From the UHGV virus genome UHGV-0124819: DNA of 24,234 nucleotides; one strand, given 5' to 3'. The first letter of the stretch is position 1; every line of letters starts with the position of its first letter. The translations under genes and the position numbers were made by a program. Below, one piece after another: positions 3,709 to 14,729 of the stretch. The stretch is from a virus. Under the pieces are notes generated by a model that ran no database searches, was not told the origin of the DNA, and saw only the letters and a program-made list of their open reading frames with translations.

Positions 3709-4005
3709 ATGCTGAAGAAAGAACCATCATTTGCATCGCTGCTGGTAAAACAAAGCCCGGCAATGCACTACGGTCACGGCTGGATCATGGGTGAGGATGG
3801 GAAACGCTGGCATCCATGTCATTCACAAGATGAATTGCTGTCTGAATTGACCACGAGGAAACGGAGAAAGTCAAAATGTATGCAGCGGAAAGTGAAGTGG
3901 TTTATCAGTTTCGTTACAGAGGGGAGAGTTATTCAGTACCTGAAGATGATTTGCTCTGTTGTTATCCGTCGTTGTCGGGCGATGGCAGTTACTTTTTCAC
4001 GCTAA
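3709..4005 (+). CDS. Hypothetical small early protein (fil/dhr-region ORF); the 3' portion overlaps the next ORF in another frame
   Basis: ATG at 3709 preceded by GAGGTG. The first ~55 codons look protein-like; the remainder overlaps 3876-4100 and looks compositionally odd (Arg/Lys/Cys-rich). Confidence 0.3.
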   Translation: MLKKEPSFASLLVKQSPAMHYGHGWIMGEDGKRWHPCHSQDELLSELTTRKRRKSKCMQRKVKWFISFVTEGRVIQYLKMICSVVIRRCRAMAVTFSR

Positions 4006-4100
4006 GGGATGGGACGTTTTTACGGGGAGAGCAGGTTAAAGAGACGATACGAAAAAATGTATCTCCTCTTGAACGTTACCGTAAGAACAAAGAACGATAG
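3876..4100 (+). CDS. Hypothetical small early protein
   Basis: 74-aa ORF with a strong SD (GGAGAAAG) 7 nt upstream of the ATG. Confidence 0.45.
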   Translation: MYAAESEVVYQFRYRGESYSVPEDDLLCCYPSLSGDGSYFFTLRDGTFLRGEQVKETIRKNVSPLERYRKNKER

Positions 4101-4122
4101 TTGCGTTTTGGGAATATGAATT

Positions 4123-4464
4123 ATGGCAATTAATGGCGCTGCAGCAACTGTTCCATTAAGCCCCGGTGAACGCCTGAATGGACTTAATCATATTGCGGAG
4201 TTAAGGGCGAAAGTTTTTGGCCTGAATATTGAGTCAGAGCTTGAGCGGTTTATTAAAGATATGCGTGATCCACGGGATATCAATAGCGAACAAAATAAAC
4301 GGGCACTGGCTGCCATATTCTTTATGGCAAAAATTCCAGCTGAACGTCACAGCATCAGCATTAATGAGCTGACCACTGACGAAAAGCGGGAGTTGATTAA
4401 AGCAATGAATCATTTTCGTGCAGTAGTGAGCTTATTCCCCAGACGACTAACCATGCCGAATTAA
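4123..4464 (+). CDS. Hypothetical early-region protein
   Basis: 113-aa ORF, co-oriented within the early operon, typical host-like codon usage. Confidence 0.6.
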   Translation: MAINGAAATVPLSPGERLNGLNHIAELRAKVFGLNIESELERFIKDMRDPRDINSEQNKRALAAIFFMAKIPAERHSISINELTTDEKRELIKAMNHFRAVVSLFPRRLTMPN

Positions 4465-4531
4465 CAAACTAATGAACTTCATGGCGTAAACACGCCGGGT
4501 ATCCCTTTACCTAAATTCAGGAGAATTGATT

Positions 4532-4765
4532 ATGCGTAATATTGAAACCCTCACGACTAAAACCGGACCGGATGATGCAGGGCTTAATATTTTACTGACA
4601 GAGGCTCGTCTGGAAGAACGCCGGGCAAGAGCTGAAGCAATGGCAGCTCGCCTTGATAGCCTTGCGTGCCATATCACATCCCGCCAGCTAAACCACGTTG
4701 AAGCGGCTGAACTGCTGCGTGTGGCAGCTGAAGCAATCCAGAACGAAGCGCAGGAGATCCACTAA
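4532..4765 (+). CDS. Hypothetical early-region protein
   Basis: ATG at 4532 preceded by AGGAG. Stop overlaps the start of the next gene by 1 nt. Confidence 0.55.
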   Translation: MRNIETLTTKTGPDDAGLNILLTEARLEERRARAEAMAARLDSLACHITSRQLNHVEAAELLRVAAEAIQNEAQEIH

Positions 4766-4992: not shown

Positions 4993-5846
4993 GCACCATC
5001 CTGAAATGGGCGGGAAATAAAACCGCCATTATGTCCGAACTGAAAAAGCATCTTCCTGCTGGCCCGCGACTGGTTGAACCTTTCGCGGGTTCCTGTGCAG
5101 TGATGATGGAGACGGAGTACCCCAGCTATCTTGTTGCGGATATTAATCCTGATTTAATCAACCTCTATAAAAAGGTTGCTGCTGATTGTGAATCATTTAT
5201 ATCTCGCGCCAGAGTTTTATTTGAGATCGCAAACAGGGAGGTAGCTTATTACAACATAAGGCAGGAGTTTAATTACTCAACTGAAATTACTGATTTCATG
5301 AAAGCGGTATATTTCCTGTATCTCAATCGTCACGGTTACCGTGGTTTATGTCGCTATAACAAGAGCGGGCATTTCAACATTCCCTACGGTAATTATAAAA
5401 ATCCGTATTTCCCTGAAAAAGAAATTCGCGCATTTGCAGAAAAAGCCCAGCGAGCAACGTTTATCTGCGCCAGCTTTGATGAAACGCTGGCGATGTTGAA
5501 GGCGGGGGATGTGGTGTATTGCGATCCGCCGTATGACGGTACGTTTTCCGGCTATCACACTGATGGTTTCACTGAAGATGACCAGTATCACCTGGCATCC
5601 GTTCTTGAACATCGGTCATCAGAAGGACATCCGGTCATTGTTTCTAACAGTGACACATCCCTGATCCGTTCGCTGTATCGCAATTTTACTCACCACTATA
5701 TCAAGGTAAAACGCAGCATCGGTGTGGCAGCTGGCGAGGGTAAATCAGCAACAGAAATCATTGCTGTTTCCGGGCCGCGCTGCTGGTTGGGATTTGATTA
5801 TTCGCGTGGCGTGGATAGTTCTGCCGTGTACGGAGTGCGTGCATGA
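4989..5846 (+). CDS. dam: DNA N6-adenine methyltransferase (Dam-like)
   Basis: Start ATG at 4989 overlaps the TraR stop (ATGA). Motifs KWAGNK, SAM-binding EPFAGSCAV, and catalytic DPPY (CDPPYDG). Confidence 0.9.
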
Positions 5847-8257
5847 GCCATGCTGATATGAACAACTGCAGCGGCTTTAACGAGGCCGCCGCAGCATTCT
5901 CATGGAACAGCCCGAAAAAGGCTATTAACCCTTATCTGGACCCGGCGGAAGTTGCGCCGGTTTCTGCGCTTTCAAACCTGATCACTCTGTACGCTGCCGA
6001 TAACGAGCAGGAACAACTGCGCCGCGAGGCACTGAGTGATCAGGTCTGGGAGCGTTATTTCTTTAATGAATCCCGTGATCCTGTCCAACGCGAAATGGAG
6101 CAGGATAAGCTCATTAGCCGGGCAAAGCTGGCGCATGAGCAGCAGCGTTTTAATCCGGACATGGTCATACTGGCGGACGTTAAAGCCCAGCCCTCCCATA
6201 TCAGCAAGCCGCTGATGCAACGTATTGAATACTTCAGCAGCCTGGGCAGGCCAAAGGCTTATTCCCGCTATTTGCGTGAGACGATTAAGCCATGTCTGGA
6301 ACGACTGGAGCATGTACGCGACAGTCAGCTATCCACTTCTTTTCGCTTTATGGCAAGCCATGAAGGGCTGGACGGCCTGCTGATCCTGCCTGAAATGAGT
6401 CAGGATCAGGTGAAACGCCTGTCTACTCTTGTCGCTGCGCATATGAGCATGTGTCTTGATGCCGCTTGTGGTGATTTGTACGCCACCGATGATGTTAAGC
6501 CAGAAGAAATCCGCAAGACATGGGAAAAGGTGGCAGCAGAAACCCTGCGACTGGATGTCATACCGCCTGCGTTTGAGCAACTCCGCCGGAAAAGAAACCG
6601 CCGTAAACCCGTACCCTATGAACTCATTCCGGGTTCGCTGGCGCGTATGTTGTGCGCCGACTGGTGGTATCGGAAATTATGGAAGATGCGTTGCGAATGG
6701 CGGGAAGAGCAGTTGCGTGCTGTTTGCCTGGTCAGCAAAAAAGCATCTCCCTATGTCAGCTATGAAGCCGTGATGCATAAACGTGAGCAGCGCCGTAAGT
6801 CGCTGGAGTTTTTCCGTTCTCATGAACTGGTGAACGAAGACGGCGACACGCTGGATATGGAGGACGTGGTAAACGCCAGTAGTAGCAACCCGGCGCATCG
6901 CCGCAATGAGATGATGGCATGTGTTAAAGGTCTGGAGCTTATCGCGGAAATGCGCGGTGACTGCGCCGTTTTCTACACCATCACCTGTCCGTCACGTTTC
7001 CATTCCACGCTAAATAACGGCAGGCCCAACCCAACCTGGACAAATGCGACGGTAAGACAAAGCAGTGATTATCTGGTCGGCATGTTTGCTGCATTTCGTA
7101 AGGCGATGTACAAAGCCGGATTGCGCTGGTATGGCGTGCGGGTGGCTGAGCCGCATCATGACGGTACAGTTCACTGGCACCTGTTGTGTTTTATGCGCAA
7201 AAAAGATCGCCGCGCCATTACTGCTTTGTTGCGTAAGTTTGCCATCCGTGAAGACCGCGAGGAGCTGGGTAATAACACAGGACCACGCTTTAAGTCTGAG
7301 CTGATAAACCCGCGCAAAGGTACGCCAACAAGCTACATCGCGAAATACATCAGTAAGAACATTGACGGGCGTGGTCTGGCTGGCGAGATCAGCAAGGAAA
7401 CGGGTAAATCCCTGCGTGATAACGCTGAATACGTTAATGCCTGGGCGTCTCTTCATCGTGTTCAGCAATTCCGCTTCTTTGGCATTCCGGGGCGTCAGGC
7501 TTACCGTGAACTGCGATTGCTGGCTGGTCAGGCGGCAAGGCAACAGGGGGACAAAAAAGCAGGTGCGGCGGTACTGGATAACCCACGCCTTGATGCCATC
7601 CTGGCTGCTGCTGATGCTGGTTGTTTTGCCACCTACATCATGAAGCAGGGCGGCGTACTGGTTCCCCGCAAATATCACCTCATCAGAACCGCTTATGAAA
7701 TCAACGAAGAGCCGACCGCCTATGGCGATCACGGCATTCGTATTTATGGCATCTGGTCACCCATTGCAGAGGGCAAGATCTGCACTCATGCAGTGAAGTG
7801 GAAAATGGTTCGTAAGGCCGTTGACGTTCAGGAGGCGGCAGCCGACCAGGGCGCTTGCGCCCCTTGGACTCGTGGCAATAACTGTCCCCTTGCTGAAAAT
7901 TTGAACCAACAGGAGAAAGATAAATCAGCTGATGGGGACCCCAGAACGGACATTACCCGCATGGATGACAAGGTGTTGCACGATTACCTGCACAGTATGA
8001 ACAAAAAGGAGCGCCGGGAATTGGCTGCAAGGTTACGTCTGGTGAAACCGAAACGGCGTAGAGACTACAAACAGCGAATTACAGACCATCAACGACAGCA
8101 GCTCGTCTATGAACTGAAATCCAGAGGATTTGATGGCAGCGAGAAAGAGGTCGATTTACTCCTTCGCGGCGGCAGTATTCCGTCAGGAGCAGGCCTGCGT
8201 ATCTTCTATCGGAACCAGCGTTTGCAGGAAGATGATAAGTGGCGGAACCTGTATTAA
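5843..8257 (+). CDS. A: Rolling-circle replication initiation endonuclease (P2 gpA family)
   Basis: 804 aa. HUH-type motif VHWHLLCF and tandem catalytic tyrosines YIAKYISKN. Start overlaps the dam stop (ATGA). Confidence 0.9.
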
Positions 8258-8349
8258 TTACGCTGGTTAACAATTCGTGCTCTTAATAATACCAGGCATA
8301 TCAGGCTGATAAGCGTAAATAAACGTTTTACATCAGTAAGATTATTATA

Positions 8350-8369
8350 TACTGTAAATATAAACAGTG
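8350..8369 (+). promoter_or_regulatory. LexA operator (SOS box) overlapping a candidate promoter for the tum-like/DinI-like genes
   Basis: TACTGTAAATATAAACAGTG has the CTGT-N8-ACAG core (CTGT 8352-8355, ACAG 8364-8367) and is close to the consensus TACTGTATATATATACAGTA. -35-like TTTACA at 8327-8332. Confidence 0.7.
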
Positions 8370-8410
8370 GTTATACATACAGTATTGCGTGTGGTGTCAT
8401 AGGAGGAAAG

Positions 8411-8599
8411 ATGCAGGACTATTTTTTGGAGTCTTTGAAGCTCCAGCGCATTGATTTTTTTCTTAAGCTTGTAGCGGCTAGTGAGTGTAGTGATGAAGAG
8501 AAGGGGCTGGCTCTGCAGTGGGTTTCTGAATTGACTGATGAACTCATGGCAAAAATCAGAAGCCACGAATACAACCGCTCAATGGATGTCATCAACTGA
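8411..8599 (+). CDS. Hypothetical small protein in the position of the 186 tum (SOS-inducible antirepressor) region
   Basis: 62-aa ORF, ATG at 8411 with SD AGGAGG at 8401-8406. Lies directly downstream of the LexA box. Confidence 0.5.
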   Translation: MQDYFLESLKLQRIDFFLKLVAASECSDEEKGLALQWVSELTDELMAKIRSHEYNRSMDVIN

Positions 8600-8609
8600 G
8601 GTGACTTTT

Positions 8610-8843
8610 ATGTGCATTGAAATAATGATCGATAAAGAGCAGAAGATTAGCCAGTCTACCCTGGACGCCCTTGAATCCGAGCTTTACCGCAATCTGCGCC
8701 CCCTGTATCCCAAAACGGTAATCCGTATCCGTAAAGGTAGCTCTAACGGTGTGGAACTGACCGGACTGCAACTGGACGAAGAAAGAAAACAAGTGATGAA
8801 AATTATGCAGAAGGTGTGGGAAGACGACAGCTGGCTGCATTGA
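8610..8843 (+). CDS. DinI-family protein (DNA-damage-inducible protein I-like)
   Basis: 77 aa, MCIEIMIDKEQ...LDALESEL...QKVWEDDSWLH. Aligns by eye over its full length with E. coli DinI (MRIEVTIAK...IDALAGEL...QETWESADDW). SD GAGGTG upstream. Confidence 0.8.
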   Translation: MCIEIMIDKEQKISQSTLDALESELYRNLRPLYPKTVIRIRKGSSNGVELTGLQLDEERKQVMKIMQKVWEDDSWLH

Positions 8844-8897
8844 TTTTGTCAATAGACGCTTGTTTTTACTAATCAAAAAGGGTTACATATGAGTGAG

Positions 8898-8931
8898 AGG
8901 CGATGTCAATCAGATATCGCCTTGTTTTTTG
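8898..8931 (+). terminator. Intrinsic terminator after the DinI-like gene
   Basis: Stem AGGCGAT / ATCGCCT (8898-8904 / 8916-8922) followed by TGTTTTTTG. Confidence 0.55.
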
Positions 8932-8956
8932 TCAAGAAAAGAATAATAGGCTAAAA

Positions 8957-9634
8957 ATGAAAATTAATAACGTAGCGTTACCAATATCTCTTGCTGTAAT
9001 CCTAACTGGTTGCGTGCCACATGCTTCTAACCGAAATATCACTGCTATTGAAGTGGTGAAGCCTGCTATTGGGCAAAGTGCTACCGCCTACATGGGCGAT
9101 CCCATTATCACATCTGCTACTGGATTTAAAACGGACGTACTAGAACTTGGTGCGGCTAATGGTGCATTGTCTTCTATCGCTGCTGGTACATATTGCAGTG
9201 AGGGGAATGGAATTTACCGCAATTATCATAACCCTCAAGCTGTTGCGTTAAAAAATCTCTATGGGCAAATCGGTAACTATGTTGATTATGTTAGTTACGA
9301 TGCTGCAAAAAATGAGATATCACCGCCAAATGGTACTTCTTATACTGCATCAGAAATTTCTATCAAACGTGTTCCTGATGGGCTGTGTCGAGTTAGTAAC
9401 TCATTGGTTAAGACTATCGAATACAATGGAAATGCAGGCGGTGTAATGAAGTTCACCTATCGTGAATTTGCAAACGATATGGCTCGTGCAGCATTTACAA
9501 CAGATTTTTCTGTAGATTCTAAGGGAAGTGACGTTATCGCTTACAAAGGTGCCAAGTTCAAAGTGAACAAGGCTGATAACTCGTCTATTTCTTATACAAT
9601 TATTTCTGGCTTTGACAAGGCTGTCACGTTCTAG
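8957..9634 (+). CDS. Lipoprotein of unknown function (moron)
   Basis: Signal peptide MKINNVALPISLAVILTGC with lipobox LTGC. 225-aa Gly/Ser/Thr/Asn-rich mature part. AT-biased. Bracketed by terminators at 8898-8931 and 9739-9765. Confidence 0.75.
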   Translation: MKINNVALPISLAVILTGCVPHASNRNITAIEVVKPAIGQSATAYMGDPIITSATGFKTDVLELGAANGALSSIAAGTYCSEGNGIYRNYHNPQAVALKNLYGQIGNYVDYVSYDAAKNEISPPNGTSYTASEISIKRVPDGLCRVSNSLVKTIEYNGNAGGVMKFTYREFANDMARAAFTTDFSVDSKGSDVIAYKGAKFKVNKADNSSISYTIISGFDKAVTF

Positions 9635-9738
9635 GTTTCACGCTTGCTGAGTATGTTACGATTTTGCACATTCTGCATAAACGCGCATGTCTATGCTGCA
9701 TGAGATCGCATGATCGTTTGAGGATCTTTTGTGTTAAG

Positions 9739-9765
9739 GCCCGCCAGTTCTGGCGGGCTTTTGCG
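9739..9765 (+). terminator. Intrinsic terminator
   Basis: Perfect 8-bp stem GCCCGCCA / TGGCGGGC (9739-9746 / 9751-9758), loop GTTC, then TTTTGCG. Confidence 0.7.
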
Positions 9766-9807
9766 TAGATCATGCAGGTGCATGAAAACCACTACATAAA
9801 GCGGGCA

Positions 9808-9826
9808 GGCGTGGCGGGGATACGAG
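9808..9826. other. Candidate cos site (19-nt cohesive-end region)
   Basis: GGCGTGGCGGGGATACGAG begins with GGCGTGGCGGGGA, matching the first 13 nt of the 186-type cohesive end as I recall it (GGCGTGGCGGGGAAAGCAT). GC-rich element in a non-coding gap between the replication and portal gene blocks. Confidence 0.45.
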
Positions 9827-9973
9827 CGCGCGCAAGGTATAGAAACAGTCGTTTGTTTACAAACAGATACTATGATTTTCAATGTTCTTTCAAATTGTTG
9901 CTTTAAGATAGCAGGTAGATGTTTGTAGTTGTTGCGTGAACTGATAAGCTTCTACAACTATCGAGGAAAGGAT

Positions 9974-11041
9974 ATGAAGCGGCTAACTGAAGAACAAATT
10001 GAACATTCTTTGATCAGAGCAAGGAAGATTGCGAAGCGGGAGTCAAGAAAGCTTTCTGGTGGAAGACGGATGCTACAGCCCATGCGGGTATTCTCTCGTG
10101 TGAGAATACCCGCGCCTGCGTCATTGGACTTATTTAATACTAAAAATTACAAACTATTTATAGAGTTTATCACTTTAATAAGAGATTACATCAATGATGG
10201 TGAGAAAATTTTAATAGATTTCAGAAATACAAAATCTCTGAAAGCATGTGCAGTAATCGTATTGTATGCACATATTGACTTTTTACAAAGGCAAACAAAA
10301 GATAAAAATATAATTTCTATTACTACGTGCGGTTCATCCAGGGCAAATAACTGGTTTAAAATATGTGGTATTTGGGGGATTACAGGGTTTCAGCGTATAG
10401 CTGCAGATAAGCTTAATTCAATGGAAATTGTTTCCGCTGTTGCAGGCAAAACTAGAGATGATCATGAAAGTGCCGAAGCAAGACAAAAAATTAAAAATAT
10501 TCTACGTTATATAAAAGATACCATTTATGAAGGTAAGATTTCCGCTTCGGATGGTGTGAAATTATATGCAGCCTTAACTGAATCTATTAGCAATGTTGGT
10601 CTACATGCGTATTCAAATGAAGAACAGTTCTCTGAATTTATTGAGGACATTGGTAAAAGATGGTGGATATTGGCACACAAAGTCGAAGAACAACTATTTT
10701 TGATGGTGTATGATATGGGAGAAGGTATCCCAGTTACATTGGTTAAAAAAGACTTTTTCACATTTATCGCTCAGATATTTAATCCTAAGACGGATTCTGA
10801 TAAAATATTCGCGGCTGTACAGTATGGTGAGACAAGAATGAATAGTCAGAAGCATGGTAAAGGATTACCTGATATGAAAAGGTATGTTGTAGATAACCCT
10901 GAGGGGCAGTTACATATTTTTAGTGGAATGGGACGATATTCTTATGATGCTGAAAATAATGTTGAAGATAAATTTGATCTGCCATACTCCATAGGTGGAA
11001 CCCTTATTCAATGGAATGTAAGTTTGAGAGGTGCTGAATGA
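9974..11041 (+). CDS. Cassette gene 1: protein with a C-terminal GHKL-superfamily ATPase/kinase domain (RsbW/SpoIIAB-like) and an N-terminal domain of unknown function
   Basis: 355 aa from ATG 9974 (SD GAGGAAAGG). N-box-like LTESISNVGLHAY (10580-10612; compare SpoIIAB SEAVTNAIIHGY), G1-box-like YDMGEGIP (10709-10732), G2-like HGKGLPD (10853-10873). AT-rich. Confidence 0.6.
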   Translation: MKRLTEEQIEHSLIRARKIAKRESRKLSGGRRMLQPMRVFSRVRIPAPASLDLFNTKNYKLFIEFITLIRDYINDGEKILIDFRNTKSLKACAVIVLYAHIDFLQRQTKDKNIISITTCGSSRANNWFKICGIWGITGFQRIAADKLNSMEIVSAVAGKTRDDHESAEARQKIKNILRYIKDTIYEGKISASDGVKLYAALTESISNVGLHAYSNEEQFSEFIEDIGKRWWILAHKVEEQLFLMVYDMGEGIPVTLVKKDFFTFIAQIFNPKTDSDKIFAAVQYGETRMNSQKHGKGLPDMKRYVVDNPEGQLHIFSGMGRYSYDAENNVEDKFDLPYSIGGTLIQWNVSLRGAE

Positions 11042-11358
11042 AAATCAAAGAGATACATGTTGCTGAAGATTTTTCAGATGTTCCCTATGGCCGCTATGAT
11101 GAGGATGGTCCTGATAATGGACAACGTTTCCGTGAAAAGTATCTTTTGAAAGCCATCCAAGATTATGATGAGGTGCACGTGTACCTTGATGGTGCTATGG
11201 GTTATGGTTCTTCATTCTTGGAAGAGGCGTTTGGTGGACTTTATAGAACAAATAATATAGATAAAGCTATAATTAGGAAAAAATTAAAAATATTTACTGA
11301 TTTGGATTTCCTCAAGGATAGTATATGGGGATATATTTCTGATGCTAAAAAGGAGTGA
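11038..11358 (+). CDS. Cassette gene 2: small acidic protein, possibly STAS-like (anti-sigma-factor-antagonist-like, DUF4325-type)
   Basis: 106 aa. ATG overlaps the gene 1 stop (ATGA at 11038-11041). Segment VHVYLDGAMGYGSSFLEEAFGG (around 11200-11235) resembles the SpoIIAA/RsbV pattern h-h-D-x-S/G-x-h-x-h-DSSGLG. Confidence 0.5.
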   Translation: MKIKEIHVAEDFSDVPYGRYDEDGPDNGQRFREKYLLKAIQDYDEVHVYLDGAMGYGSSFLEEAFGGLYRTNNIDKAIIRKKLKIFTDLDFLKDSIWGYISDAKKE

Positions 11359-11363
11359 TGTTC

Positions 11364-11852
11364 ATGGATGAACTTCCGGTTTATCTGCGGTTATTACAAT
11401 ACCTTGCTAGTTCAGGTGTGATTGCAATTCTAACAGCCTTGATTGGTTGGGTTTTTGTTTATAGAAACTCCCGTGCGTTGCAAAAGAGGAGTGAAACATG
11501 GTCAATTGTAAAAAATGTTTCAGATAATTTAAAGGAAATTGAATCTGCATCAAGAAAGTTTTGGATACCGGGAGATTCAAAAGAAATTGATGCAATGTCA
11601 TTTCAAAATGAGATAACAGCACTTCTTGCGGAGACCGAGCGGTGGTTGAATCATCTAAAACAACGCATTAATATCGAAGGTGACTATAAACCTTTGATTG
11701 CTGATTTATTCAAAGATGCTACATCTAATATTGAAAAAGCACAGGAGTATGATAAAAGTCAAAGGACAAGAATTAGTGTATTAGTGTCAAAAAGGGCGAA
11801 AATAATTAAATCTCTAATTGATGAGTCTTATCAGAAAAAATTCTTAAAGTGA
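11364..11852 (+). CDS. Cassette gene 3: single-pass membrane protein with a C-terminal coiled-coil-like region
   Basis: Likely ATG at 11364, 9 nt after SD AAGGAG and 5 nt after the gene 2 stop. TM helix VIAILTALIGWVFVY, then a charged heptad-like Lys/Glu-rich region. AT-rich. Confidence 0.6.
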   Translation: MDELPVYLRLLQYLASSGVIAILTALIGWVFVYRNSRALQKRSETWSIVKNVSDNLKEIESASRKFWIPGDSKEIDAMSFQNEITALLAETERWLNHLKQRINIEGDYKPLIADLFKDATSNIEKAQEYDKSQRTRISVLVSKRAKIIKSLIDESYQKKFLK

Positions 11853-11862
11853 TAATTTGTTA

Positions 11863-11891
11863 CGGCACGGTAGTGCCGTAGTTTTTTTTCT
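11863..11891 (+). terminator. Intrinsic terminator closing the three-gene cassette
   Basis: Stem ACGGCAC / GTGCCGT (11863-11869 / 11874-11880), loop GGTA, then a T8 run. Confidence 0.75.
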
Positions 11892-11937
11892 TATTATGTG
11901 TTGAGCGATGGATGTCCTATTAAGTGATGTAAATGTA

Positions 11938-12963
11938 TCAGAATGAATATATTTCAAATTCTATTATTTTTTTATCAAGCCATTCATTTATCTCTCCTAA
12001 GCGTTTTTGTAATGGTATAAGTTCGTTTCGTACAAACACTTTACTTGCTTTCTCCACATCCCCAAACCCCCCAACATTATTAGGCATAATCCCCATCATC
12101 TGAGGCGGCACGCGGTGCGCTGCCATCATGTCATCCCGACTCACGTTCTTGATATTAAGAAATTCATCCTTCGCCGCGACTTCTGACAATGGGATGATCT
12201 GAAGCCCGTCCTTTTTGCCGTTAGGCGAGTACATAAACAGGTTGCGGAAGTTGCCTGGACCTTTGGCGCTTTTCATCGCGTTGCGGAGGTTGTTCACATC
12301 CTCCTGGTTTTGTGCGGCATCGGTCATGTACATGATAAAGCCCGCATGGCTGCCGTTAATGTAATACTTGCGACGGAACAGCGTGGCGGACTCGTTGAGC
12401 AGGGCTGACGGAATGGCAGAAAGATAACCGGGCAGGCCGTAGATCTCCTGGTTGATGTCCGGTTCCATCAGATGAAAGATGCTGCCTTTCGTGAACTGAT
12501 ATGGCTGCGTGGTCATACCGTATTGCACAAACCAGTAGGTATCCAGGTCTAACCCGCGTCGGGTGTATTTTGCCAGGGCAGGTTCAAGGGCGATAACTTC
12601 ACCGAAGCGGTTCGTGCGTTTCTCCAGGTAGGCGTTACCAAATACCAGATAGTCCTGCACAAAACGCGAAAAAGCCTGCTGGCTGAGCAGCGGGTGAGGG
12701 ATGTAGGTGCTGGTCAGAATGTTGCACTTTACTGCAATCGGGGAACTATGATGCACGGCAGCGCGGAAGGTGCGCGCCAGTCCGTCAAAGCTGACGGGCG
12801 GCTCATACCAGCGGTCCATCTGTACGCATTCCACATAATCCAGCAGTTCTCGGCGGTCCAGAACAGGAACGGGATCGCCGAAGCTGAATGCTTCGGCTGT
12901 AGTTTGACTTTTAAGCTGGATCTGTTTCGTCGCCGCAGTGCGGTTCTTCTTACTCTTTCCCAT
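11938..12963 (-). CDS. Q: Portal protein (P2 gpQ family)
   Basis: 341 aa, the size and position of P2 gpQ. Convergent with the cassette and immediately followed (upstream on the minus strand) by the terminase gene. Assigned by synteny and length. Confidence 0.9.
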   Translation of the reverse strand: MGKSKKNRTAATKQIQLKSQTTAEAFSFGDPVPVLDRRELLDYVECVQMDRWYEPPVSFDGLARTFRAAVHHSSPIAVKCNILTSTYIPHPLLSQQAFSRFVQDYLVFGNAYLEKRTNRFGEVIALEPALAKYTRRGLDLDTYWFVQYGMTTQPYQFTKGSIFHLMEPDINQEIYGLPGYLSAIPSALLNESATLFRRKYYINGSHAGFIMYMTDAAQNQEDVNNLRNAMKSAKGPGNFRNLFMYSPNGKKDGLQIIPLSEVAAKDEFLNIKNVSRDDMMAAHRVPPQMMGIMPNNVGGFGDVEKASKVFVRNELIPLQKRLGEINEWLDKKIIEFEIYSF

Positions 12964-14729
12964 CAAAAAATCTCCACAATATTGCTGGTATTGGCGGATT
13001 CGCCCTGCAGCGGTTCGTTAAACAGTGCGTGCATCGTTGCCCAGGCCAGATCGGCGTGGCTGGCTTCTTCGCTGCGGCTGGCTTCATAGGTCGGGCGGTT
13101 GCCACTGGCGGTGGTGGCGCGACGGATTGCCATGAATGACTGCGCAATGTCGGTGTGCCCGGCGTCAAACTCAAGACGGCGGTGGCTGATAATGTCGTAG
13201 GCCTTGAGTACCAGGGCGTTTTTAACGTTGGGGTTGTAGACAAACTCCCGGACGGCAGGAAAAAACGCTTTCACGTTCTCGTAAACCCCGTGACCAACGC
13301 CGGTTGAGTCGATGCCGATATAGGTCACGTTGTACCGTTCGGTCAGTTTTTTGATGGCGTCAGCCTGGGCGCGAAAGTCCATTCCGCGCCACTGGTGACG
13401 CTCAAGAATGCGGAACTTACCGCCCGGCACGGCTGGCGGTGCCACCACCACGCATCCGGCGCTGTCGCCGTTTTGCGTACCTTTTGCCGGGTCATAACCG
13501 ATCCACACTTCGCGCCAGCCAAACGGGCGCAGAGCCAGTGCATGAAAGTCGGTCCAGACTTCCCAGCTGTCCACCATGCACGCCTGCAGCTCGCTGAGCG
13601 GGAACACGGACGCGAGATCGTCCACGAACTCACACATCAGCAGGTTCTGGTATTCGTCCGGGCTGTATTCCATGCGTAACTGGTCGAGGTCGAACAGGTT
13701 ACATCCGCCGCGCACCGCATCTTCTACGGTGACTATCTGGCGGTATTGCCCGTCTGCGCACAGCAGGCCGGGGGCCAGATTGCTGTGGGACAGGTCGATG
13801 TCCACCTTATCGGCTTTGTTGCGCCCACGGTTGAACAGCGCACCGGACCAGAACGGATAAGCACTGTGTGTCAGACTGGATGGCGTGGAAAAATAGGTCT
13901 GTCGCCATTTCTTGTGAATAGCCATACCGGAAGCCACTTTGCGCAGCTCCTGGAATTTCGGTATCCAGAAATATTCATCCAGATACAGGTTGCCGTGATA
14001 ACTCTGGGCCGTGCGGGCATTGGTGCCGAGGAAGTAAAGCGTGGCCCCGTTGGGAAGCACCATCGGATCACCTTTCAGCTCCACCTCCACTTCTTTGGCG
14101 AAGTCGATGATGTACTGCTTAAAGACGTGGGCCTGTGCCTTGCTGGCGGAAAGGAAAATCTGGTTACGTCCGGTCAGCAGAGCGTCAATCAGGGCTTCAC
14201 GGGCAAAATAGAAGGTCGCGCCGATCTGGCGTGACTTCAACAGGTTGCGGATGCGGTTGGTTTTTCCGGCTTCCCACCAGTGGCGCTGGTAGTTGAACAT
14301 GGAGGAATGGAAGATTTCCTCCAGCTTTTCAATCTGTTCATCGGTGAAAACGTTCTTTTCCGGCTGACGACGCGGGCCTTTGTTGCGGTTGGCGACGTTA
14401 GGGTTTAAGTCGGCTTCGTTGCCGCCATTGTTAAACTTGCCGATCCGCGCGTGGCGCTCAGACTGGCGCGCCAGCAGGTCAATCTCTTTGAAATCTTTCC
14501 CTTCTTTGTGCTCCTTCATAATGAGCTGGCAGTAGCGGGCGGCGGTGGTGAGCTGCATCTGATCCAGCGGCCCATAGTCACCCCACTTGTCGCGTTTTTT
14601 CCAGCTGTGAACGGTTGCAACTTTCTCGCCCAGCATTTCAGCAATGCGGGCTACGCGGTATCCCTGAAAGTACAGCAGCATGGCCTGCCGACGGGGATCG
14701 AGATCTGCGGGTGTCAGTGTGGTGTTCAT
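12963..14729 (-). CDS. P: Terminase large (ATPase) subunit (P2 gpP family)
   Basis: 588 aa, the size and position of P2 gpP, in the Q-P operon divergent from O. Confidence 0.95.
   Translation of the reverse strand: MNTTLTPADLDPRRQAMLLYFQGYRVARIAEMLGEKVATVHSWKKRDKWGDYGPLDQMQLTTAARYCQLIMKEHKEGKDFKEIDLLARQSERHARIGKFNNGGNEADLNPNVANRNKGPRRQPEKNVFTDEQIEKLEEIFHSSMFNYQRHWWEAGKTNRIRNLLKSRQIGATFYFAREALIDALLTGRNQIFLSASKAQAHVFKQYIIDFAKEVEVELKGDPMVLPNGATLYFLGTNARTAQSYHGNLYLDEYFWIPKFQELRKVASGMAIHKKWRQTYFSTPSSLTHSAYPFWSGALFNRGRNKADKVDIDLSHSNLAPGLLCADGQYRQIVTVEDAVRGGCNLFDLDQLRMEYSPDEYQNLLMCEFVDDLASVFPLSELQACMVDSWEVWTDFHALALRPFGWREVWIGYDPAKGTQNGDSAGCVVVAPPAVPGGKFRILERHQWRGMDFRAQADAIKKLTERYNVTYIGIDSTGVGHGVYENVKAFFPAVREFVYNPNVKNALVLKAYDIISHRRLEFDAGHTDIAQSFMAIRRATTASGNRPTYEASRSEEASHADLAWATMHALFNEPLQGESANTSNIVEIF

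Follow-up and report, generated by a model that had tools for sequence, protein, structure and literature searches.

The CapK/CapS pair consists of a GHKL kinase with an internal STAS domain, activated by single-stranded DNA (ssDNA), and a repressor that joins a STAS domain to a winged helix-turn-helix (wHTH); the kinase phosphorylates a conserved serine of the repressor, and the pair regulates CBASS, Bub and Thoeris operons (Chambers et al., EMBO J 2026, PMC13373217). The same study describes VapKSC, a three-gene anti-phage toxin-antitoxin system in which VapC is a PIN toxin and VapS, a STAS domain with a short tail, inhibits VapC until VapK phosphorylates S48; the system gives phage protection (PMC13373217). 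Repressor and PIN outputs of the kinase-STAS pair are described in that paper, whose text was not searched for membrane proteins. An older remark had coupled one VapC/PIN group to DUF4325 genes (PMC5499597). Here we analyse a three-gene cassette in UHGV virus genome UHGV-0124819, a stretch of 24,234 nucleotides (the window, to which coordinates refer unless another locus is named). Gene 2 of the cassette (S; 11038-11358, + strand) encodes a STAS-like DUF4325 protein of 106 amino acids, and is best read as the middle component of an operon for a kinase, its STAS substrate and a membrane protein, carried as cargo in the P2 hotspot.

The cassette resembles VapKSC in its order of three genes, for a kinase, a small STAS protein and an effector, the last being putative in the cassette. 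In both systems the kinase consists of STAS and GHKL domains with no helix-turn-helix (HTH), the second protein belongs to Pfam DUF4325 and no phosphatase is encoded; the validated phospho-serine S48 of VapS aligns with S58 of the gene 2 protein. The two part at the third gene, which encodes a PIN nuclease in VapKSC and a single-pass membrane protein without a PIN or other Pfam domain in the cassette. The gene 2 protein is shorter than VapS (106 versus 116 amino acids) and differs from it in a distinctive conserved N-terminal segment, PxGRY...DG..SGE.FR, and in the almost invariant motif GYGSSFLEEAFGG. The C-terminal tail of VapS blocks the toxin; the gene 2 protein has a C-terminal helix (residues 90-102) in its structural model. 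Unlike VapK, the gene 1 kinase has a strongly basic N-terminal extension of about 50 residues, and the similarity of the cassette proteins to VapS and VapK was seen with sequence profiles only.

CapK/CapS shares with the cassette a GHKL kinase with an internal STAS domain and a separate STAS protein encoded directly downstream, whose conserved helix 2 serine is phosphorylated by CapK. CapS has a wHTH and acts as a repressor, whereas the gene 2 protein is a bare single domain without a wHTH; CapK has an N-terminal HTH where gene 1 has a single basic helix; and CapK/CapS precede a multi-gene immune operon, whereas none follows the cassette. The SpoIIAB/SpoIIAA and RsbW/RsbV partner-switching modules differ in that the cassette has neither a sigma factor nor a PP2C phosphatase and sits on a mobile element, its kinase carries an extra STAS domain in cis, and its gene 2 protein, unlike SpoIIAA and RsbV, has no Pfam STAS or STAS_2 match.

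A preliminary description of this DNA, made from the sequence alone, had proposed a 106-codon open reading frame (ORF) for an Asp/Glu-rich protein, translationally coupled to a kinase-like gene. The ORF is present, and its ATG overlaps the TGA stop codon of gene 1 in the tetranucleotide ATGA (11038-11041), with a Shine-Dalgarno-like GAGAGG 6-7 nucleotides 5′ of the start. The protein proved moderately acidic (isoelectric point (pI) 5.03, D+E 19.8%, K+R 15.1%, net charge -5). Residues 27-85 match Pfam PF14213, DUF4325 (E 3.5e-12, 46.3 bits; gathering cut-off 23 bits), which Pfam names 'STAS-like domain of unknown function'; the similarity far exceeds chance and agrees with the earlier mention of DUF4325 as a STAS-like family often encoded beside GHKL ATPases, the second part of which is true for the gene 2 subfamily, as set out below. 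The hidden Markov model (HMM) search suggested at the time thus succeeded for DUF4325 and failed for the canonical STAS and STAS_2 models. One spurious match to AFG1 was the only other Pfam result at E <= 1. PF14213 was found in every one of 318 gene 2 homologues from a database search, and DUF4325 forms the C-terminal domain of phrog_5816. That gene 2 encodes a STAS-like DUF4325 partner for the kinase of gene 1 we regard as almost certain, and the earlier interpretation is in the main supported.

The segment VHVYLDGAMGYGSSFLEEAFGG (residues 46-67, nucleotides 11173-11238) had been likened to the region around the phosphorylatable serine of anti-anti-sigma factors. In an alignment of 55 gene 2 sequences extending to 44% identity, P16, G18, R19, G28, F31, R32, G55, Y56, G57 and S58 are invariant, as are F60, L61, E63, F65, G67 and R70, and position 59 is S or T in at least 90%. 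The AlphaFold2 model of the protein, made with the family alignment as input, is confident, with a predicted local distance difference test (pLDDT) of 93.1 and a predicted template modelling score (pTM) of 0.83. It shows a STAS-like alpha/beta fold, as had been proposed, whose nearest structures are RsbV and other STAS domains, and which runs through strand 3-7, a short helix, helix 28-42, strand 45-49, helix 58-70, helix 76-82, strand 83-86 and the C-terminal helix 90-102. S58 is the first residue of helix 58-70 (helix 2), after strand 45-49. The phospho-serine of SpoIIAA and RsbV is the first helical residue following the equivalent strand. The predicted phospho-acceptor codons, TCT TCA for Ser58-Ser59, lie at 11209-11214 (+ strand).

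The VapS fragment is itself a clear DUF4325 member (E 3e-15). Escherichia VapK was sought by tblastn with this fragment among plasmids and phages, and only a Deinococcus kinase-STAS-PIN operon was found; it was used as the comparison in place of Escherichia VapK. This vapKSC-type operon, on Deinococcus gobiensis plasmid P5 (locus L162, 2000-4352), encodes ATP-binding, STAS-like and PIN proteins. Alignment of its STAS protein with the gene 2 family gave a probability of 87.8% (E 3e-6) and placed its serine on S58, and in a MAFFT alignment VapS S48, the serine of the Deinococcus VapS-like protein and S58 share one column. The likeness to the anti-anti-sigma region thus held up, and by these alignments S58 rather than S59 is most likely the phospho-acceptor. 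As a separate observation, the Deinococcus operon is preceded by an HTH regulator gene and adjoins two GIY-YIG nuclease genes on its 54.6-kb plasmid.

Gene 1 (K; 9974-11041, + strand) encodes 355 amino acids from the ATG at 9974, which has a good Shine-Dalgarno sequence and is the start chosen by the Prokaryotic Genome Annotation Pipeline (PGAP); a TTG at 9929 is an alternative start, giving 370 amino acids. A basic N-terminal helix (residues 6-26) is followed by a STAS-like domain (residues 37-157, nucleotides 10082-10444, + strand) and a SpoIIAB-like GHKL kinase domain (residues 163-350, nucleotides 10460-11023, + strand). The match to Pfam HATPase_c is weak (E 2e-3), and HATPase_c_2, the Pfam family of SpoIIAB and RsbW, is present in several relatives of gene 1. 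Among 132 unique homologues, gathered independently of the ATP-binding motifs, E203, N207, D247, G249, G297 and T343 are invariant. The N box of the Bergerat fold (10580-10612, + strand), E203-S-I-S-N207-V-G-L-H211-A-Y213, resembles that of SpoIIAB and RsbW and lies inside the stretch covered by an RsbW profile match. The other motifs, on the same strand, are the G1 box (10712-10732; D247-M-G-E-G-I-P253, with D247 and G249 in 132/132), the G2 box (10856-10867; G295-K-G297-L, with G295 in 131/132 and G297 in 132/132) and the G3 region (10997-11014; G342-T343-L-I-Q-W347, with T343 in 132/132 and W347 in 131/132). The G2 box adjoins the ATP lid (residues 286-295), which is modelled with pLDDT <50. 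As judged from its sequence, gene 1 encodes a STAS domain joined to a SpoIIAB-like GHKL kinase with intact ATP-binding motifs.

Within the GHKL superfamily, the closest structures to the gene 1 protein are the serine kinases SpoIIAB, RsbW and SiaB. Alignment by hhalign of the gene 1 family with the kinase of the Deinococcus operon gave a probability of 91.9% (E 7e-7) over 247 columns that span both domains; by this profile comparison gene 1 has the VapK architecture and is homologous to the kinase of the kinase-STAS-PIN operon. In the kinase's own STAS domain the residue equivalent to the phospho-site, C92, is variable (C, S, A, D or G), so this domain looks regulatory rather than a substrate. 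The N-terminal segment of about 50 residues (9974-10120) has a median net charge of +13 across the 132 homologues. It is modelled as a long single helix, has no HTH match in Pfam, and could bind nucleic acid or membrane.

Gene 3 was not counted as part of the system in the preliminary description. It extends from an ATG at 11364 to 11852 (+ strand; 162 amino acids), with AAGGAG 8 nucleotides before the ATG; two alternative in-frame starts, GTG at 11355 and ATG at 11358, both overlap the stop codon of gene 2. A predicted transmembrane (TM) helix near the N terminus (residues ~14-32, nucleotides 11403-11459, + strand) is followed by a basic juxtamembrane stretch and a helical cytoplasmic domain of about 130 residues. 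An N-out/C-in topology, which would place the bulk of the protein in the cytoplasm, where the products of genes 1 and 2 act, is predicted from the difference in charge on the two sides of the helix (-0.75 before, +2.4 after). The family evolves fast, with about 15% identity between distant members. What its members share is the TM helix together with a GW...RExRKE segment and an A..Y motif; most also have TGGDFE, which is replaced by DATSNIE in the enterobacterial allele. No match to gene 3 was found in Pfam, the PDB, NCBIfam or PADLOC beyond coiled-coil noise, and phmmer against 1.8 billion representatives returned only 34 small relatives, with no informative fusions. By its sequence features gene 3 belongs to an undescribed family of single-pass membrane proteins, and its product is the putative effector of the cassette.

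Translation of the three genes is linked, and the operon closes with an intrinsic-terminator-like hairpin with a 10-bp stem and a T run (11859-11892, + strand). The left edge of the cassette, with the upstream untranslated and promoter region, is at 9836-9973 (+ strand); a sigma-70 promoter scan upstream of gene 1 gave no convincing match, none being above shuffle expectation. The GYGSSFL[ED]E subfamily of gene 2 was found in 276 genomes in a scan of one genome per species and on 161 IMG/VR viral contigs, and synteny was counted in 80 bacterial loci fetched from the 276 genomes and in 80 viral loci from the 161 contigs. These loci were retrieved by the peptide pattern GYGSSFL[ED], so that conservation of residues 55-62 among them is circular; the evidence for the serine that is independent of the pattern consists of the 55-sequence alignment, the Deinococcus profile alignment and the MAFFT column. 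A gene 1 homologue stands immediately upstream of gene 2 in 79 of the 80 bacterial loci, and an iterated HMM search assigned the downstream ORF of 145-215 codons to the gene 3 family in 79 of 81 sources, a set that includes the window and the E. coli HH194M locus (L001). Among viral loci, 78 of 80 have all three genes in order, and two are without one or more of them; the contig of one of these, L126, ends just upstream of gene 2. In an uncultured alphaproteobacterium (L056, 3879-5303) the first two genes are fused in frame, with the kinase at residues 17-363 and the STAS-like protein at 371-473, and a gene 3 family member follows. Four IMG/VR contigs (L108, L109, L111 and L113) hold the module twice, in copies separated by about 2 kb (about 200-1945 and 3800-4752); the upstream copy is complete but divergent, and in the downstream one no more than a 64-residue fragment of the kinase gene was detected.

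Cassette loci come from Gamma-, Beta- and Alphaproteobacteria, Desulfobacterota, Planctomycetota, Verrucomicrobiota, Bdellovibrionota, Nitrospinota, Bacteroidota and Saccharimonadia. A like layout (a 293-residue protein, a 112-residue DUF4325 protein and a 125-residue TM protein) appears in a Francisella prophage reported in 2021 (PMC7924643). The 142 flanking genes contain no conserved partner, the commonest family being seen four times, and the module is therefore autonomous; neither in the cassette nor conserved nearby is there a linked sigma factor or PP2C phosphatase. The neighbourhoods are often mobile or defence-rich: the flanking genes include integrases, S24 repressors, IS200 transposases and restriction-modification methylases, and homologues of MADS, AriA, PtuA, HEC-01, SoFic and AbiL.

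In the window, a P2-like prophage of an enterobacterium, the cassette lies between genes for a gpA-type replication endonuclease (5843-8257, + strand) and a gpQ-type portal protein (11938-12966, - strand), the left and right landmarks of the P2 hotspot, a site of anti-phage cargo (Rousset et al. 2022, PMC9122126). It forms an island of low G+C content, 31-37% across 10000-12000 against about 55% in the phage backbone. The prophage of E. coli H7 (L164) is 99.8% identical over window positions 8300-9835, shares the backbone of gpA, a small hypothetical gene, a DinI-like gene and a lipoprotein gene, and then carries in the cassette slot (equivalent to window ~9836-11900) a gene for a 479-residue SEFIR-domain protein (L164, 6239-7678). 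Since the match ends at about 9835 and a SEFIR gene lies beyond it, the cassette is a discrete, swappable unit of about 2 kb.

The cassette has been catalogued. Table S5B of Rousset et al. lists P2-hotspot system #61, 'DUF4325', which occurs 68 times and is annotated '1 TM in protein 3', and Table S5A gives the RefSeq accessions of the window's genes 1 and 3 in NZ_CP036202 (PMC9122126). Protein 1 of system #61 is identical to the gene 1 protein save one residue, and protein 2 is the gene 2 protein save a two-residue N-terminal difference (MKEIHV... versus MKIKEIHV...). Protein 3, of 214 amino acids, is not the product of the window's gene 3; it is a distant family member (HMM E 6.5e-14, no significant BLASTP match). 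Either variants were mixed in the table or the membrane gene has been exchanged independently; among 5426 complete E. coli genomes, none had the same first two genes with another third gene, near and distant blastn searches returning the same 20 genomes. A P4-satellite system, #69 'HATPase_c | DUF4325' (Table S1; nine occurrences), also has three genes, the last for a 1-TM protein (PMC9122126).

Searches of the Rousset supplements for the cassette sequences and for the terms DUF4325, STAS and HATPase gave matches only outside the table of evaluated systems. PADLOC-DB v2.0.0 contains no match to gene 1, 2 or 3 at E <= 1, searches of NCBIfam and Rfam with the cassette returned nothing, and literature searches for DUF4325, for STAS-like anti-phage systems and for the RefSeq accessions found no functional study. 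Identity with the '3HP' system of Rousset et al. (three genes, no clear domain, anti-P1) was considered and not established, the cassette being absent from the evaluated table; nor does a PADLOC match link the two, the presence of 3HP models in PADLOC-DB being unconfirmed. The cassette is best filed as a catalogued system without functional characterisation in the literature found, one that combines a GHKL-STAS switch with a new membrane family.

We propose the following mechanism. In an uninfected lysogen, unphosphorylated gene 2 protein would hold the gene 3 protein inactive by binding its cytoplasmic domain. An infection signal, possibly ssDNA (as for CapK and VapK) or another nucleic acid, would be sensed between the STAS and GHKL domains of gene 1 or by its basic N-terminal segment, and would activate the kinase. 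The kinase would then phosphorylate S58 (or S59), the phosphorylated gene 2 protein would release the gene 3 protein, and the freed membrane protein would damage or depolarise the inner membrane; growth would stop, and infection by a competing phage would be aborted. The switch would be one-way, because no phosphatase is encoded. On balance we judge it somewhat probable that the whole chain, from phosphorylation through release of the membrane effector to abortive infection, runs in this VapKSC-like manner. The reading is supported by the DUF4325 membership of VapS, which is also the best PDB match of the gene 2 profile, and by an invariant S58 that aligns with VapS S48; by the ATGA overlap, the near-universal linkage to the kinase gene upstream and the gene 3 family downstream, the natural fusion of kinase and STAS-like protein, and the DUF4325 domain of phrog_5816; by the autonomy of the module among its varied neighbours; by the location between gpA and gpQ, the SEFIR gene in the same slot and the 161 IMG/VR contigs; and by the precedent of VapK-VapS-VapC, which gives phage protection (PMC13373217). 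That the cassette is, more broadly, a widespread anti-phage abortive-infection system, in which phosphorylation of S58 frees single-pass membrane effectors and the N-terminal arm may sense nucleic acid, we hold to be a slightly less than even prospect.

Other arrangements of the same three proteins were considered. The logic could be reversed, as in SiaB/SiaC, so that a constitutive kinase keeps gene 2 protein phosphorylated and inert, and infection, by lowering ATP or blocking the kinase, lets newly made, unphosphorylated gene 2 protein switch the membrane protein on. Activation would have to await such new synthesis, as no phosphatase is conserved in or beside the operon, and VapKSC, the closest characterised homologous system, runs the other way (PMC13373217); we consider the reversed logic unlikely. 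A switch of the CapK/CapS type, in which gene 2 protein represses an adjacent operon until phosphorylation relieves repression, would have in its favour that CapK/CapS is a homologous GHKL kinase and STAS pair (PMC13373217). The operon, however, ends at a terminator after one small gene, and gene 1 has no HTH by Pfam; we rejected this reading, which we put at very improbable indeed, on the ground that the gene 2 protein is a bare STAS-like domain of 106 residues with no DNA-binding domain. Phosphorylation might play no part at all if GYGSSFLEEAFGG were a ligand- or protein-binding surface of an adaptor and the GHKL protein an ATPase rather than a kinase. The best structural matches of gene 1 in the superfamily are serine kinases, and a phospho-site validated in another member of DUF4325 aligns with the gene 2 serine, which leaves such an adaptor improbable.

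The output could also lie elsewhere than in gene 3. SpoIIAB and RsbW combine kinase activity with stoichiometric inhibition of a third protein. As these are the best structural matches of gene 1, the gene 1 kinase might itself be the effector, sequestering or phosphorylating a host or phage protein in the manner of an anti-sigma factor or toxic kinase, with gene 2 as antagonist or pseudo-substrate and gene 3 as an anchor or a sensor of phage entry. The conserved basic extension of gene 1 and the absence of a toxin-like domain from gene 3 would fit. Against it, the operon has no linked sigma factor and no other likely target beside it, gene 3 is as strictly conserved in it as genes 1 and 2, which fits an output role, and the third gene of the homologous VapKSC encodes the toxin; we see this as a rather small chance, a little below that of the reversed logic. 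Lower still, and of about the same improbability as the adaptor, we place a service to the prophage itself, in which the membrane protein, regulated by the kinase-STAS pair, would act in superinfection exclusion, in the timing of lysis or induction, or as an addiction module. Some P2-hotspot cargo is indeed non-defensive, for example partition systems and cytolethal distending toxin (PMC9122126), and gene 3 has a weak match to a holin-family PHROG (E 0.006), confined to the TM region. The module, however, is found in distant phyla at many different chromosomal sites, with mixed neighbours and no conserved phage genes, and also in P4 satellites, and a role tied to P2 biology is therefore unlikely.

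Several points weigh against the VapKSC-like chain that we prefer. Phosphorylation, binding of gene 2 protein to gene 3 protein, toxicity of gene 3 and phage protection are all steps that we infer. The canonical Pfam STAS and STAS_2 models do not match gene 2 at E <= 1. Profile searches of the PDB gave top matches that are sensible but sub-significant, namely Escherichia VapS (9z7o, E 0.14), the best match of the gene 2 family profile, RsbW (0.34), whose match covers the N box of gene 1, and SpoIIAA (1); single-sequence PDB searches gave nothing relevant. Gene 3 has no recognisable toxin or pore domain; besides the holin-family match, one of 76 family members gives a marginal Saf_2TM match (E 0.001). 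Systems #61 and #69 are not in the table of systems that Rousset et al. evaluated for defence (Table S2), and the frequency of defence-type neighbours, though these are often present, stands without a background rate. As to the acceptor, an ungapped local HMMER alignment sets VapS S48 on S59 rather than S58, and the gene 2 counterpart of P4-hotspot system #69 carries RYGRSFIDEAFGG, with Arg at the S58-equivalent and Ser only at the S59-equivalent position. Because of these two observations S59 is kept as a candidate although S58 is preferred, and the acceptor position may shift by one residue within the family.

As a widespread abortive-infection system with membrane effectors, the cassette would represent a third output class of the GHKL-kinase/STAS switch, after transcription control by CapKS and the PIN nuclease of VapKSC. 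If the preferred mechanism is true, serine phosphorylation of a STAS-like antitoxin would be a general, modular means, open to bacteria and prophages alike, of arming different effectors, in this case a membrane protein instead of a nuclease or repressor. DUF4325 would thereby gain a function, as would a cassette that lies without annotation on at least 1000 contigs of enterobacteria (E. coli, Salmonella, Klebsiella) and is found in many further phyla; the P2/P4 hotspots would gain one more candidate defence system, a compact one of ~1.9 kb.

The distribution of the cassette was also followed within E. coli. It was found at 99.8% identity in 20 of the 5426 complete genomes, chromosomal every time; in strain HH194M it lies in a P2-type prophage beside rcdA/ybjJ. 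To the left of the cassette, the window has a DinI-like gene (8538-8843) and a lipoprotein-like gene (8903-9634; 243 amino acids, phrog_1353). The interval that holds these genes, 8300-9835, was matched in 1281 of the 5426 genomes, of which only 20 have the cassette; in HH194M it differs from the window in content and orientation. Database records of the exact cassette proteins extend to Salmonella enterica and Klebsiella aerogenes. Contigs with the exact proteins number at least 1000 for genes 1 and 2 and 892 for gene 3, and the database names of these proteins are only 'hypothetical', 'ATP-binding' and 'STAS-like domain-containing protein'.

Near the start of the window, a 327-codon ORF (155-1138, - strand) with a G+C content of 35-38% overlaps the end of the integrase gene (1135-2163, - strand) by 4 nucleotides. 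Its product, hydrophobic in segments near the N terminus, matched nothing in Pfam or PADLOC; the ORF is probably a further accessory (moron) gene, located where the prophage has its attachment site.

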